From: Eledone cirrhosa
Lineage: Eukaryota
Direction of reading: 5' to 3'
Assembly: GCA_964016885.1 (NCBI GenBank)
Contig: OZ024747.1
Location: 50,530,001-50,594,000 of the forward strand
Length of the DNA: 64,000 nucleotides
Part shown: positions 26,701 to 56,413 of the stretch, one piece after another
How positions within the stretch are numbered: the stretch's first letter is position 1
Layout of the letters: the number at the start of each line of letters is the position of its first letter
Made by a program: the position numbers and the translations under genes
Notes under the pieces: generated by a model
Seen by the model: only the letters and a program-made list of their open reading frames with translations
The model's database searches: none
What the model was told of the DNA's origin: nothing

Positions 26701-27635
26701 TCACTTAGGATTAGGAAAGCAAGTGATGCTTTCGGAAAGCTAGAAAGGCGACTCTGGGGTCGGCGAGACATATGCAGGAGGACAAAGGTAAGGGTGTACA
26801 GGGCATGTGTACTCTCTTGTCTTCTTTATGCCTGCGAGACCTGGGTCACATATCGACGCCACCTTAAGCAATTGGAGCTTTTCCATCAGATGTGTCTCAG
26901 ACGGATACATGGCGTTCACTGGAGGGACCACATCAGTGATGTCGAGATTTTGGAAAGCTCTATGTGTGACAGTATAGAAGCTCTTGTGCTTAAGCAGCGA
27001 CTCCGTTGGAGTGGTCACCTTGCCAGGATGAAGGATTCTAGAATACCAAAACAACTCTTCTATGGAGAGTTGGTTAAAGGAAAACGACCGCCACATAAAC
27101 CAAAAAAGAGGTATAAGGATTCCTTGAAGGCCTCTCTGAAAGACGCTAACATCTCTGCTGATACATGGGAAAATATTGCTGCTGATCGTAATAAATGGAG
27201 AAAGACTGTATATGAGGGAAAAGTTGCCTTTGAGGCATCTCGAATCGCACACGAGAAAGTAAAGCGGGACGTGAGGAAGCGTATTGCTGTTGCACTTCCA
27301 GACGGCGAGGGTCCTCCTATGTTTCTGACATGCAGCGTCTGTGCGAGACTCTGCCTAAGCAAAGCTGGACTCGAAAGTCATCTTCGCAGTCATAAAGTAA
27401 GACCAGTGGTTGACTACCAGGCTGTTGTTGGAGATGCTACTCATCATGCTTGCCAAACATGTGGTAGAGAATGTAAATCAGCAGGAGGACTCAAGCGACA
27501 TGCAAAAGTACACGAACTCCAACCACAGCCGACTATTCCCAGTAAATGTTTTGGTTGCCGACTCTGTGCAAGACATTTTAGATCATTGGCTGGGCTAAAA
27601 AGCCACATTCGATCGCAGCACTGTTAGTTGCTATC

Positions 27636-33059: not shown

Positions 33060-34697
33060 TTGTGATATATGCTGTTGTTGTCGTTCATGATGTTGTTTTT
33101 GACACTGTTATTATTGTTGTTGTTGGTGTTGTTGGTGTTGGTGTTGTTGGTGGTGGTGTTGTTGTTGTTGTTGGTGTTGGTGTTGTTGTTGGTGTTTTGG
33201 TGTTGGTGTTGTTGGTGGTGTTGTTGTTGTTGGTGTTGTTGGTGTTGGTGTTCTTGGTGGTGGTGTTGTTGTTGTTGGTGTTGGTGTTGTTGTTGGTGTT
33301 GGTGTTTTGGTGTTGGTGTTGTTGGTGGTGTTGTTGTTGTTGGTGTTGTTGGTGGTGGTGTTGTTGTTGGTGTTGGTGTTGTTGGTAGTGTTGGTGTTGT
33401 TGGTGTTGGTGTTGTTGTTGTTGTTGGTGTTGTTGTTGGTGTTGGTGTTGTTGGTGTTGTTGGTGTTGTTGGTGTTGGTGTTGGTGTTGTTGGTGTTGGT
33501 GTTGTTGTTGTTGGTGTTGGTGTTGGTGTTGGTGTTGTTGTTGTTGTTGGTGTTGTTGGTGTTGGTGTTGGTGTTGTTGGTGTTGTTGTTGTTGGTGGTG
33601 GTGTTGGTGGTGGTGTTGTTGTTGGTGTTGGTGTTGTTGGTGGTGGTGTTGTTGGTGGTGGTGTTGTTGTTGGTGTTGGTGTTGTTGGTGGTGGTGTTGT
33701 TGGTGGTGGTGTTGTTGTTGGTGTTGTTGTTGGTGTTGGTGTTGTTGGTGTTGGTGTTGTTGGTGGTGGTGTTGTTGTTGGTGTTGGTGTTGTTGGTGGT
33801 GGTGTTGTTGTTGGTGTTGTTGGTGGTGTTGTTGTTGTTGGTGTTGGTGTTGTTGGTGGTGTTGGTGTTGTTGGTGTTGTTGGTGGTGGTGTTGTTGTTG
33901 GTGTTGGTGTTGTTGGTGTTGGTGTTGTTGTTGGTGTTGGTGTTTTGGTGTTGTTGGTGGTGTTGTTGTTGTTGGTGTTGTTGTTGGTGTTGGTGTTGTT
34001 GTTGGTGGTGTTGTTGTTGGTGTTGGTGTTGTTGGTGGTGTTGGTGTTGTTGGTGTTGGTGTTGTTGGTGGTGTTGGTGTTGGTGTTGGTGTTGTTGTTG
34101 GTGGTGTTGTTGTTGGTGTTGGTGTTGTTGGTGGTGTTGGTGTTGTTGGTGTTGGTGTTGTTGGTGGTGTTGGTGTTGGTGTTGTTGTTGTTGTTGGTGT
34201 TGTTGGTGTTGTTGTTGTTGGTGGTGGTGGTGTTGGTGTTGGTGTTGTTGTTGTTGTTGGTGTTGTTGGTGTTGGTGTTGGTGTTATTGGTGTTGTTGTT
34301 GTTGGTGGTGGTGTTGGTGGTGGTGTTGTTGTTGGTGTTGGTGTTGTTGGTGGTGGTGTTGTTGGTGGTGGTGTTGTTGTTGGTGTTGGTGTTGTTGGTG
34401 GTGGTGTTGTTGGTGGTGGTGTTGTTGTTGGTGTTGTTGTTGGTGTTGGTGTTGTTGGTGTTGGTGTTGTTGGTGGTGGTGTTGTTGTTGGTGTTGGTGT
34501 TGTTGGTGGTGTTGGTGTTGTTGGTGTTGTTGGTGGTGGTGTTGTTGTTGGTGTTGGTGTTGTTGGTGTTGGTGTTGTTGTTGGTGTTGGTGTTTTGGTG
34601 TTGTTGGTGGTGTTGTTGTTGTTGGTGTTGTTGTTGGTGTTGGTGCTGGTGTTGGTGTTGGTGTTGTTGTTGTTGGTGTTGTTGGTGTTGTTGGCTG

Positions 34698-34731
<34 letters not shown>

Positions 34732-35335
34732 GGTGTTGTTGTTGGTGTTGGTGTTGTTGGTGTTGGTGTTGGTGTTGTTGGTGGTGGTGTTGTTGTTGTT
34801 GGTGTTGTTGGTGGTGTTGGTGTTGTTGGTGTTGGTGTTGTTGGTGTTGGTGTTGGTGTTGGTGTTGTTGGTGGTGTTGTTGTTGTTGGTGTTGTTGTTG
34901 TTGGTGTTGGTGTTGTTGGTGTTGTTGGTGGTGGTGTTGTTGTTGGTGGTGTTGTTGTTGGTGTTGGTGTTGTTGGTGGTGGTGTTGTTGTTGGTGTTGT
35001 TGTTGGTGTTGTTGGTGTTGGTGTTGGTGTTGTTGGTGTTGGTGGTGTTTGTGTTGTTGTTGTTGGTGGTGGTGTTGGTGGTGGTGTTGTTGTTGGTGTT
35101 GGTGTTGTTGGTGGTGGTGTTGTTGTTGGTGTTGGTGTTGTTGGTGGTGTTGGTGTTGTTGGTGTTGTTGGTGGTGGTGTTGTTGTTGGTGTTGGTGTTG
35201 TTGGTGTTGGTGTTGTTGTTGGTGTTGGTGTTTTGGTGTTGTTGGTGGTGTTGTTGTTGTTGGTGTTGTTGTTGGTGTTGGTGCTGGTGTTGGTGTTGGT
35301 GTTGTTGTTGTTGGTGTTGTTGGTGTTGTTGGCTG

Positions 35336-35381
<46 letters not shown>

Positions 35382-37628
35382 GGTGTTGTTGTTGGTGTTG
35401 GTGTTGTTGGTGTTGGTGTTGGTGTTGTTGGTGGTGGTGTTGTTGTTGTTGGTGTTGTTGGTGGTGTTGGTGTTGTTGGTGTTGGTGTTGTTGGTGTTGG
35501 TGTTGGTGTTGGTGTTGTTGGTGGTGTTGTTGTTGTTGGTGTTGTTGTTGTTGGTGTTGGTGTTGTTGGTGTTGTTGGTGTTGTTGGTGGTGGTGTTGTT
35601 GTTGGTGTTGGTGTTGTTGTTGGTGGTGTTGTTGTTGGTGTTGGTGTTGTTGGTGGTGGTGTTGTTGTTGGTGTTGTTGTTGGTGTTGTTGGTGTTGGTG
35701 TTGGTGTTGTTGGTGTTGGTGGTGTTTGTGTTGTTGTTGTTGGTGGTGGTGTTGGTGGTGGTGTTGTTGTTGGTGTTGGTGTTGTTGGTGGTGGTGTTGT
35801 TGTTGGTGTTGTTGGTGGTGGTGTTGTTGTTGGTGTTGGTGTTGTTGTTGGTGTTGGTGTTGTTGGTGTTGTTGTTGGTGTTGGTGTTGTTGGTGGTGGT
35901 GTTGTTGTTGGTGTTGGTGTTGTTGGTGTTGGTGTTGTTGGTGGTGGTGTTGTTGTTGGTGTTGTTGGTGGTGGTGTTGTTGTTGGTGTTGGTGTTGTTG
36001 TTGGTGTTGGTGTTGTTGGTGTTGTTGTTGGTGTTGGTGTTGTTGGTGGTGGTGTTGTTGTTGGTGTTGGTGTTGTTGGTGTTGGTGTTGTTGTTGGTGT
36101 TGGTGTTTTGGTGTTGTTGGTGTTGTTGGTGTTGGTGTTTTGGTGTTGTTGGTGGTGTTGTTGTTGTTGGTGTTGGTGTTGTTGGTGGTGTTGGTGTTGT
36201 TGGTGTTGTTGGTGGTGGTGTTGTTGTTGGTGTTGGTGTTGTTGGTGGTGTTGGTGTTGTTGGTGTTGTTGGTGTTGGTGGTGTTGTTGTTGTTGGTGTT
36301 GTTGTTGGTGTTGGTGTTGTTGTTGGTGTTGGTGTTTTGGTGTTGTTGGTGGTGTTGTTGTTGTTGGTGTTGTTGGTGGTGTTGGTGTTGTTAGTGTTGT
36401 TGGTGGTGGTGTTGTTGTTGGTGTTGGTGTTGTTGGTGGTGTTGTTGTTGTTGTTGGTGTTGTTGTTGTTGGTGTTGGTGTTGTTGGTGTTGGTGTTGTT
36501 GTTGTTGGTGTTGTTGGTGGTGGTGTTGGTGTTTGTGTTGGTGTTGTTGTTGTTGGTGTTGTTGGTGTTGTTGGCTGTGTTGTTGTTGTTGTTGTTGTTG
36601 TTGTTGGTGTTGTTGTTGTTGGTGTTGGTGTTGTTGGTGTTGGTGTTGGTGTTGTTGGTGGTGGTGTTGTTGTTGTTGGTGTTGTTGGTGGTGGTGTTGT
36701 TGTTGGTGTTGGTGTTGTTGGTGGTGGTGTTGTTGTTGGTGTTGTTGTTGTTGGTGTTGGTGTTGTTGGTGTTGGTGTTGGTGTTGTTGGTGGTGTTGTT
36801 GTTGTTGGTGGTGGTGTTGTTGTTGGTGTTGGTGTTGTTGGTGGTGGTGTTCTGGTTGGTGTTGTTGTTGTTGGTGTTGGTGTTGTTGGTGTTGGTGTTG
36901 GTGTTGTTGGTGGTGTTGTTGTTGTTGGTGTTGTTGTTGTTGGTGTTGGTGTTGTTGGTGTTGTTGGTGGTGGTGTTGTTGTTGGTGGTGTTGTTGTTGG
37001 TGTTGGTGTTGTTGTTGGTGTTGTTGGTGTTGGTGTTGTTGGTGTTGGTGGTGTTGGTGTTGTTGTTGTTGGTGGTGGTGTTGTTGTTGGTGGTGGTGTT
37101 GGTGGTGGTGTTGTTGTTGGTGTTGGTGTTGTTGGTGGTGGTGTTGTTGGTGGTGGTGTTGTTGTTGGTGTTGGTGTTGTTGGTGGTGGTGTTGTTGTTG
37201 GTGTTGTTGGTGGTGGTGTTGTTGTTGGTGTTGGTGTTGTTGATGTTGGTGTTGTTGTTGTTGGTGGTGTTGTTGTTGTTGGTGTTGTTGGTGGTGGTGT
37301 TGTTGTTGGTGGTGGTGTTGGTGGTGGTGTTGTTGTTGGTGTTGGTGTTGTTGGTGTTGGTGTTGTTGGTGGTGGTGTTGTTGTTGGTGTTGGTGTTGGT
37401 GGTGGTGTTGTTGTTGGTGTTGTTGTTGGTGGTGTTGTTGTTGGTGGTGGTGTTGTTGGTGTTGGTGTTGTTGTTGTTGTTGGTGGTGTTGTTGTTGTTG
37501 GTGTTGTTGGTGGTGGTGTTGTTGTTGGTGGTGTTGTTGGTGTTGTTGGTGTTGGTGTTGGTGTTGGTGTTGGTGTTGTTGTTGGTGTTGGTGTTATTCG
37601 TGTTCTGGCTGCTGTTTAACGTTGAGTT

Positions 37629-37705
<77 letters not shown>

Positions 37706-37760
37706 GGTGGTGGTGGTGGTGGTGTAGGTGTTCGTGGTGGTGGTGTTGTTGTCAGTAATG
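33060..37760. repeat. About 4.7-kb (GTT/GGT)n array
   Basis: Almost purely G/T on the + strand. Confidence 0.97.
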
Positions 37761-42479: not shown

Positions 42480-42673
42480 CAGATAGGGTCTGATAAAAAC
42501 CAGCTCGACCATAACCCACCAAAGTACTCGATACTTGGGGTAGTACAGAGGGTGATATGAAAAGATTCAGTACCCCGACGGCTGAGCTCCGGTCGTTGCG
42601 ACAGGTAGATCCAAACTCTGTGTTTGGATCTAGCTGTCGAAACAGCCGGAGCTCAGCCGTCGGGGTCCTGAAT

Positions 42674-42708
<35 letters not shown>

Positions 42709-42931
42709 ACGAAGGAAATGTGGTAAGGAACCAGGTGGACCATAACGCACCAAAGTACTCAATACTTAGGGTAGTAGAGTGGGTAATAGGAACGAGTAGG
42801 ACCCCGACGGCTGAGCTCAAGCCGTTTCGACGGCTAATTCTGGACTAAAAAAAAAAATTTTTTTTTTTTTTAAAGTCCAGAATTAGCCGTCGAAACGGCT
42901 TGAGCTCAGCCGTCGGGGTCCTACTCGTTCC

Positions 42932-42936
<5 letters not shown>
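42480..42936 (-). mobile_element. Two tandem fold-back elements from different subfamilies
   Basis: 42480-42677 and 42708-42936, each a unique tail plus hairpin. Confidence 0.9.
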
Positions 42937-44103: not shown

Positions 44104-44562
44104 TATGTATAAATATTTCGTATCTCCAAAGAAATACGGTTTTAGGAAGCCGTAGCTATGAAAACACCGGGGGGTTAACGCCCTCTGGTGATGTCCAGCA
44201 GAAGCAAGAGGGACAACCGTCTATGCATTTCAGGCTTAACTGGCCATCGTCAGGACGGTCCCTCCCACCGCTTGTGACTGCTGGACTAGAAGACAGGCGA
44301 GAATATATAGTTTTCTCGTCTGTGTAAATGAGGAGATTAATCTCATTTGCATATGAAGCTGCATAAGTTGGCTCAACTTATAATAGAAAAGAAATAGGAT
44401 AGACGGTTGTCCCCCTTGCTTCTGCTGGACATCACCAGAGGGCGTTAGCTCCCCGGTGTTTGCATAGCTACGGCTTCCTAAAACCGTATTTCTTTGGAGA
44501 TACGAAATATTTATACATATTGTATAAAGCTATGCTTGAAGCGAAATCCTATTTCTTTTATA
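44104..44562. mobile_element. PLE pLTR inverted-repeat insertion
   Basis: 44104-44224 is the reverse complement of 44399-44520; contains an HHR. Confidence 0.85.
44216..44259 (-). ncRNA. Intact minimal type I hammerhead motif
   Basis: ACCGUC-CUGACGA-UGGC(CAGUUAA)GCCU-GAAA-UGCA-UA-GACGGU; palindromic stem III. Confidence 0.85.
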
Positions 44563-44585
44563 TATATATATATATATATATGCTG

Positions 44586-44904
<319 letters not shown>

Positions 44905-45996: not shown

Positions 45997-46194
45997 CGAA
46001 GGAAATGTGGTAAGGAACCAGATGGACCATAACGCACCAGAGTACTCAATACTTAGGGTAGTAGAGTGGGTAATAGGAAAAAGTATGACCCCGACGGCAG
46101 AGCTCAAGCCATTTCGACGGCTATTTCTAGACTGAGTCCAGAAATGGCCGTCGAAACGGCTTGAGCTTTGCCGTCGGGGTCATACTTTTTCCTA
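45997..46194 (-). mobile_element. Fold-back element (HHR-derived family)
   Basis: Same tail plus hairpin structure. Confidence 0.9.
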
Positions 46195-54818: not shown

Positions 54819-54822
<4 letters not shown>

Positions 54823-55004
54823 AAAAAGTATGACCCCGACGGCAGAGCTCAAGCCGTTTCGACGCTGTTTCCAGAAATAGCCGGCGAAACGGCTTGAGCT
54901 CTGCCGTCGGGGTCATACGTTTTCCTATATTCCCACTCTACTACCCTAAGTATTGAGTACTCTGGTGCGTTATGCTCCATCTGGTTCCTTACCACAATTC
55001 CTTT

Positions 55005-55007
<3 letters not shown>
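54819..55007 (+). mobile_element. Fold-back element (HHR-derived family)
   Basis: Hairpin followed by the unique tail. Confidence 0.9.
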
Positions 55008-56309: not shown

Positions 56310-56413
56310 AACGGAGGAAATGTGGTAAGGAACCAGGTGGACCATAACTCATTAGTCCAGAATTAGCCGTCGAAACGGCTTGAGCTCAGCCGCCGGGGTC
56401 CTACTCGTTCCTA
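56310..56413. mobile_element. Internally deleted fold-back element
   Basis: Start of the tail joined to the short arm. Confidence 0.8.

Follow-up and report, generated by a model that had tools for sequence, protein, structure and literature searches.

Head-to-head half-hammerhead hairpins in Eledone cirrhosa as probable 5'-truncated insertions of a Hydra-clade Penelope-like element

Short elements embedded in (TA)n repeats recur in a 64,000-nucleotide stretch of the Eledone cirrhosa genome (hereafter the window, meaning that whole stretch), and most of them fold into near-perfect hairpins whose arms carry half of a hammerhead ribozyme. Judged from their sequences, these elements are probably (at about 0.6) 5'-truncated head-to-head insertions of a Hydra-clade Penelope-like element (PLE), formed by double priming on a capped transcript and not by the fold-back of a cDNA upon itself. 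That they derive from a PLE is close to certain.

According to this reading, a promoter in the pLTR would start a capped RNA at the A of a TTAGT word (+1), 43 nt downstream of the CUGANGA strand of the hammerhead, and the RNA's 5' end would therefore hold only half of the ribozyme. The enzyme would nick both strands of the (TA)n target, after which one reverse transcriptase (RT) would start at +61 and another at +141 of the same RNA, one for each target strand; both cDNAs would run off at the cap, copying it as a C, and their ends would be linked by end-joining, accompanied by trimming and the addition of filler. If priming instead took place in the 3' pLTR of that RNA, the long arms would result. 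Individual steps have precedents in the literature: one PLE protein nicks the two target strands and extends each of them, with RT starting at a pair of internal sites that delimit the tail (PMC11167929); in L1, cap copying is marked by an additional G at the 5' end (PMC11702581); and Penelope carries an internal promoter within its pLTR (PMC2377424).

Copies in the window and across the genome

Nine (TA)n-repeat stretches of the window align mutually and constitute one family (Table 1), as the first-pass annotation of this DNA had claimed, but they represent eight independent insertions: the copies at 9313–9433 and 9825–10024 are mirror images within a larger inverted duplication (about 9300–9950) and are counted as one because they share private changes. 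The further statement that all copies lie in (TA)n does not extend to the 9313 copy, which has a tail remnant of only 13 nt and lacks a clean (TA)n on its left side. Complete copies had been described as a unique tail plus a hairpin; seven of the nine are indeed palindromes (109–153 nt, self-complementarity 84–97%), but the tail is the RNA-sense 3' part of the element and equals the 5' UTR of the parent PLE, rather than being a unique addition, and the copy at 56310–56413 forms no hairpin. The arrangement of the latter cannot be derived from simple self-copying. In the copy at 42708, the predicted fold reaches -151 kcal/mol (z = -19.4, with none of 200 shuffles equally stable), and the arm reads as originally described, with GAAAC at 42892 and GTCGGGGT at 42912. 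CTGANGA, the CUGANGA strand of a hammerhead, is absent from all nine copies, again in line with the annotation.

Table 1. Positions of the family members in the window, with the copy at 42708 divided into its parts
Positions	Strand	Feature
42708..42786	-	Tail of 79 nt between the two insertion end points, corresponding to +62..+140 of the putative transcript; abuts (TA)n
42787..42846	-	Tailed arm: putative +1 A at 42846, 3' strand of stem II, GAAA at 42828, stem III with GAGCTC loop, GUC at 42808-42806, 3' strand of stem I, CCTA
42847..42873	.	Head-to-head junction with A/T filler, which varies between copies
42874..42933	+	Tail-less arm: +1 A at 42874, GAAAC at 42892, GTC at 42912, CCTA end running into (TA)n
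42480..42677	-	Hairpin of the diverged (GATCT) subfamily; palindrome 42561-42677; extra G precedes the +1 of the tailed arm
45997..46194	-	Hairpin; palindrome 46074-46194; centre ACT-G-AGT, extra G on the tail-less arm
17824..18019	-	Hairpin; palindrome 17905-18018; extra G on the tailed arm
9825..10024	+	Hairpin; palindrome 9825-9945; extra G on the tailed arm
9313..9433	-	Mirror-image counterpart of the copy at 9825, within the larger inverted duplication
54819..55007	+	Hairpin; palindrome 54819-54927; tail-less arm shorter at the centre
56310..56413	+	No hairpin: first 45 nt of the tail (opposite strand) and a complete tail-less arm from TTAGTCC
1..68	+	Tail-less arm of the GATCT subfamily, clipped by the window edge

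Poly(A) or poly(T) filler at the head-to-head junction is seen at 42847–42873 of the window and at three loci elsewhere (L180, L184, L031), which suggests that cDNA ends slipped or received untemplated tails.

A half-hammerhead word of 28 letters has 38,884 exact occurrences in the 3.0-Gb assembly, compared with 0 for a control word, and fuzzy arm matches number 9 in 250 kb (25 position-chosen stretches) against 16 in the 64-kb window. The counts from listings that follow rest on the first 100 matches listed for each pattern, mostly from two or three contigs, and were made by hand. Searching the window against Rfam returned only generic miRNA-hairpin scores below gathering, with no hammerhead among the 150 matches listed of 422, and the output of an inverted-repeat scan of the window was dominated by simple repeats. 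An assembly artefact was rejected as the source of the hairpins, given their copy-specific centres, their mismatched arms and a layout that is a known PLE structure. In three sequencing runs, loose ends occur at both insertion end points and depth climbs steeply near +1; these are contigs of one sample, possibly the one behind the assembly itself, and do not count as independent support.

The parent element and its hammerhead

The first-pass annotation had predicted unfolded parents bearing GACCCC-CTGANGA. A search for CTGANGA located 38–68 nt upstream of an arm led to parent loci, in that a recurrent unfolded form appeared in 8 of its 57 rows, with the order ACCCC, core, a long, large-looped stem II, GAAA, stem III, GUC and GGGGU. 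Parents with ACCCC and a core upstream thus exist, but most of them lack the literal CUGANGA (a C3-G8 core is found in only 8 of 58), and the search missed the majority because their cores are not CTGANGA. When CTGANGA was placed 8–38 nt from the arm, the 60 matches were nearly all chance words in junction filler or neighbouring repeats, and a pattern with stem II directly after CTGANGA gave 0 matches.

The DNA upstream of the parent hammerheads led to pieces of PLE open reading frame (ORF) and then to one locus, L234, which comprises an inverted tailed pLTR, a partial (truncated) tandem copy, an open ORF of 719 aa (5079–7235 of the locus) and a tail-less 3' pLTR; two other loci (L163 and L235) show the parent anatomy as well. 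In the parent, the tail continues beyond the upstream hammerhead into the 5' UTR, which is followed by the ATG. With the A of TTAGT as +1, the core strand lies at -43, GAAA at +19, the cut site after +41 and the ATG at +232, while the insertion end points fall at CCTAT (+61) and GTTAT (+141), 80 nt apart and both able to pair with (TA)n. In the short elements, the final 60 and 140 nt of the pLTR region are joined in head-to-head orientation. The annotation's proposal that the cDNA starts in (TA)n, at the tail end, is supported.

The single parent ORF encodes an RT followed by a C-terminal GIY-YIG domain (FDIES at 253, GATDS at 317, YRDD at 348, IY..YIG at 592), and this outcome of the check for a parent ORF upholds the PLE origin put forward in the annotation. 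Its other motifs are RWR at 37 in L234 (SWK in L235), DKT at 117, CNCPDRSIC at 572 (CxCX5C), CNLC at 670 (CxxC) and CKH at 698 (CxH); CX2-5CxxC and CCHH are absent. L234 further combines a hammerhead-bearing pLTR, a tandem and inverted layout and a (TA)n target, all of them features of the Hydra clade. By its predicted protein motifs, and following the available text of PMC8557442, the parent is placed as a new member of the Hydra clade, and a Neptune-type identity was dropped since the protein motifs point to the former. Pfam gave no match for either the ORF fragments or the full 719-aa ORF, and a PDB sequence search with the latter gave 0 matches. More than 2,000 homologues were found, those listed being mostly 38–43% identical; homologues at about 40% carry PF26215, and the best match also carries PF01541 (GIY-YIG). 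Other PLE-like ORFs lie beside copies, namely one of 714 aa with an RVT_1 match (L240, 455–2596, minus strand) and one of 452 aa resembling the Hydra-clade ORF (L237, 3793–5148, minus strand).

The arms had been described as the 3' half of a type I hammerhead, and the parent loci carry the whole motif: an N3-UGA-N-N8-A / GAAA / UH core with its 3-8 pair is found in the parent, and the unconstrained minimum free energy fold of the L234 motif is a three-way junction. Across 19 of the 27 extracted long arms, 93.7% of cells are paired in the named hammerhead structure, compared with 20–47% when it is slid, and covariation is slight. RNAalifold preferred another fold and did not recover the hammerhead, and Rfam returned 0 matches for four parent loci. 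The 3-8 pair of 58 long arms is C-G in 8, U-A in 22, U-G in 2, C-A in 25 (an overestimate, as 30 loci had been selected for their resemblance to one subfamily) and U-C in 1, with position 7 free; many copies therefore have a mismatched core. The U3-A8 core is a known variant of PLE hammerheads (available text of PMC4209133). Among the long arms in L131–L165, one subfamily most often has the C3-A8 core, in which the tertiary pair is mismatched; since this subfamily has nevertheless spread, cleavage may be dispensable for transposition. The hairpins themselves are likely by-products without ribozyme activity of their own.

Arm ends and the origin of the two arms

The 5' ends of the arms pile up at the A of TTAGT inside loop II, frequently with an additional G that is absent from both parent and target. 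In position-chosen sequence totalling 844 kb, the end lies no more than 10 nt from +1 in 20 of 32 tailed and in 21 of 27 tail-less arms (3 tailed arms could not be scored, and tail-less candidates were discarded if they matched over less than 20 nt). The ends do not cluster at the hammerhead cut site at +41: the interval +39..+45 holds the ends of only 2 of the 32 tailed arms. Counted across the genome, +1 is reached by 9,709 tailed and by 9,320 tail-less arms, junctions with a C 17 nt upstream having been excluded in both classes; a point against the double-priming reading is that these classes are not alike in their types of junction.

Head-to-head pairs consist of one tailed and one tail-less arm in 44 of 46 cases at loci that were chosen by position or stood first in a listing (p = 3e-11 compared with a coin toss). 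Of the 59 hairpins examined, 35 could be scored for the subfamily type of both arms, and in 33 of these the two arms agree (chance expectation, 18%); the arms therefore come from one template, while 57 distinct centres in 59 hairpins imply that each hairpin was made anew. The partner stops short of +1 for 36 of 100 tailed and 38 of 100 tail-less arms, and read-through into the parent loop occurs in 31 of 100 and 34 of 100, respectively (hand counts among the matches listed). A self-copied arm cannot carry parent sequence that its template arm lacks, and the tail-less arm behaves like an independent copy of the RNA. Moreover, it ends at a fixed second site, the same at which the 3' pLTR of the full-length element L234 ends. 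This layout recurs in long head-to-head copies, each arm of which contains the complete core; the tail-less arm can extend hundreds of bases past its partner without losing the core, and may be the longer of the two (L151, L075).

The best-surviving alternative, a snap-back at the RNA 5' end, is unlikely. In such a reaction, the tail-primed cDNA would reach the capped end, fold upon itself, prime its own copying and stop at CCTA by pairing with (TA)n, later deletions being responsible for the odd copies. This would suit the common haplotype of the two arms, and the recurrent centre TTCTGGACTCAGAA could form a small loop. It also fits the lean of the local set, where the tailed arm is longer in 27, shorter in 9 and equal in 23 of 59 hairpins by a crude measure disturbed by mutations, the direction that fold-back predicts; in the unselected subset, the tailed arm is longer in 16 cases against 4 (two of them duplicates). 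Later deletions inside the palindromes could blur such lengths, and, given this lean, a share of the hairpins may still be snap-back products. However, tail-less arms exceed their partners by tens to hundreds of bases (L075, L151, L039), occur alone, or are found complete and joined to mere tail remnants (window 56310, L170, L171, L213), and the 1-nt loop of the centre GGACT-G-AGTCC cannot self-prime. Tail-less arms also have a G of their own: in centres of the form GACT-N-AGTC, the middle base is G or C in 85 and A or T in 15 of 100 matches listed (the rows being arms, often two per element), and the extra G lies on the tailed arm in 48 and on the tail-less arm in 37 of these, a small surplus (p = 0.28) in the direction of a snap-back. 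One hairpin (L066, about 7300–7450) has arms of seemingly different subfamilies, and a two-RNA event is possible there from the sequence of its arms.

The nature of the +1 site bears on a second alternative, which retains double priming but supposes that, next to the inner hairpin of loop II, +1 is where the RT is strongly arrested or where a processed RNA ends, and that the G arises from an untemplated C added by the RT. Where arms are joined straight to (TA)n, the base before +1 is G in 57, A in 9, C in 6 and T in 28 of 100 matches listed of 275, a count covering one TA register only, and approximately 420 further arms join (TA)n in phase with no extra base (94 of 100 matches listed, of 446). 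Before the C at +4, G occurs once and A four times among 100 matches listed (p = 0.003 versus +1); this lack of a G excess argues against untemplated addition. Before the A at +6, the counts are G 28, A 8, T 22 and C 33 of 91 (G:A versus +1, p = 0.28), so that either a second minor start or a cause other than the cap is needed, and the specificity of the signal is weaker. An RT stop or processed end is further favoured by the position of TTAGT at the inner hairpin of loop II, by the splice-acceptor-like reading TTTAG of the site and by the one third of arms that read through. On the other hand, all 57 read-through arms have T or C before +1, and the words TTAGT and TCAGT both match the initiator consensus, so the change at -1 keeps an initiator-like word. 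TTAGT with the extra G is also found in a second family of different structure, whose parents read GTTAGT and whose short arms read G-AGT in 6 of about 10 arms ending there. Altogether, this alternative is distinctly unlikely. The second family is abundant, unrelated and likewise built as tail plus hairpin in (TA)n (window 19498–19586; L079, L133, L134, L159, L176, L213), and its hammerhead-like words are unconvincing.

The model offered in the first-pass annotation, in which the cDNA is extended through stem II and turns back on itself at that point, so that an inverted copy replaces the CUGANGA side, is very unlikely and is largely refuted by the break-point map. A short copy does resemble a parent whose core strand has been swapped for the mirror of the other side, and part of the loop is kept in some centres (L173, L209, L178). 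However, the break point lies at TTAGT inside loop II, approximately 25 nt short of the 5' strand of stem II, and most tailed arms stop near it, which leaves that strand uncopied; both arms of long head-to-head copies retain the entire core (L138, L139, L142, L151, L186, L188); and arm lengths are independent, the tail-less arm having its own fixed end, length and extra G. Under double priming, the absence of the core strand would follow from its position upstream of the putative transcript and not from overwriting.

For head-to-head PLE palindromes, the one published proposal found is self-priming on an antisense template (available text of PMC3846280), and it accounts for the shared haplotype of an identical architecture. 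It is highly improbable here, as it leaves unexplained both the extra G at an initiator-like site of the sense strand and the two sense-strand end points, which match the RT start sites determined in vitro on sense RNA (available text of PMC11167929). A MITE or other non-autonomous DNA transposon moving as a unit, the reading by which the annotation would have been overturned, is suggested by the short, palindromic, high-copy form with near-fixed ends and is practically dismissed by a tail at one end only, centres that differ in 57 of 59 copies instead of a constant interior, and arms that are the pLTR of the RT-encoding parent at L234.

Relation to known elements and neighbouring sequences

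Head-to-head pLTRs, with an inverted truncated copy and a tail at one end, are a known PLE layout (PMC8557442, PMC2377424), the origin of which is named as an open question in the available text of PMC8557442. The element from Eledone cirrhosa resembles the Hydra clade as described there in its RWR/SWK and DKT motifs, its CxCX5C linker without CCHH, and the CxxC and CxH that flank E and N, and equally in its single ORF with C-terminal GIY-YIG, pLTR hammerhead, (TA)n target, inverted truncated copy and one-sided tail. It differs in a unit of 3,118 bp (mostly below 3 kb in the clade), in a tail of 80 nt (30–40 in the clade), in the length of both stem II and stem III, which are long, and in the presence of minimal two-arm hairpins, cut at one site and numbering tens of thousands. 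Similarly, Poseidon PAc of Anolis (PMC11167929, available text) uses a pair of internal RT start sites that delimit the tail and lie near the hammerhead and the ORF start, and both strands of an AT-rich target are nicked and extended; its sites, however, lie within the ORF and are not homologous to the target, whereas those described here lie in the 5' UTR, end in TAT and match (TA)n. The available text of that study contains no model for the inverted pLTR and reports no transcription start site.

The PLE hammerheads compiled in PMC4209133 (available text) share the type I motif in the pLTR, the short helix I, the palindromic loop 3, the U3-A8 variant and the occurrence of opposite-strand pairs 100–700 bp apart, whereas the present elements mostly hold the 3' half only, with a helix III of 5–6 bp and a putative start in loop II. 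L1 twin priming (PMC11702581, available text) likewise involves two primers on one RNA, end-joined inverted segments and an extra G at the capped 5' end; the L1 segments derive from different parts of the RNA, whereas both cDNAs here would span the same 60 nt and give a palindrome, with a fixed second site. Non-LTR retrozymes (bioRxiv 10.64898/2026.07.22.740005, available text) are also short, non-coding derivatives of PLE pLTRs with type I hammerhead sequence, but they are head-to-tail tandems of whole ribozymes, whereas the present copies are head-to-head, contain half motifs and are seemingly made anew with each insertion; an identity as non-LTR retrozymes was therefore set aside. Neither double priming nor cap run-off for PLE inverted repeats, nor a start site within the hammerhead, was found in the literature, the coverage of which was thin for subscription papers (older PLE reviews included), figures and bioRxiv supplements.

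A wider proposal is tentative, at slightly less than even odds: PLE integration in general may involve a pair of RTs that share an RNA, each serving one target strand and placed at one of the two tail-bounding sites, which would leave an inverted pLTR and a one-sided tail. In the present family, a promoter inside loop II would give an RNA born with a half-ribozyme 5' end, uncleavable alone and possibly a trans partner of the whole ribozyme at the 3' end, and priming near the 5' end would have strewn the genome with near-perfect 60-bp hairpins, tens of thousands in number, as a record of the cap. Thousands of dated junctions would thereby provide a different and testable answer on PLE inverted repeats, one that fits the 2024 in vitro data (available text of PMC11167929), and the extra G would open a route to PLE start sites from genomes alone. 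A start site within the ribozyme, if true, bears on the role of PLE hammerheads. Copies lying within transcripts are, in addition, predicted to be strong double-stranded RNA substrates.

The tail-plus-hairpin layout is general in the Eledone cirrhosa genome: in 1.46 Mb of loci, 77 oriented segments from many other families consist of a tail and a hairpin between (TA)n runs (e.g., window 44609–44901 and 44107–44558), and in several of them a CTGANGA...GAAA motif is preserved in each arm. At 9300–9950 and 17326–17461 of the window and at L108, a (TA)n run forms the centre of an inverted duplication in which flanking DNA is copied on both sides; these may reflect a separate TA-driven fold-back process. 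The window also contains LINE-like open frames (303 and 901 codons; 24010–27624, plus strand) whose start resembles an endonuclease, further retroelement-like frames at 5043–5531 and 6525–7499, and, at 33106–37751, a 4.6-kb TGT/TGG repeat with a Pro/Thr-rich open frame of 1,669 codons on the minus strand, which may be a simple repeat or a mucin-like exon.
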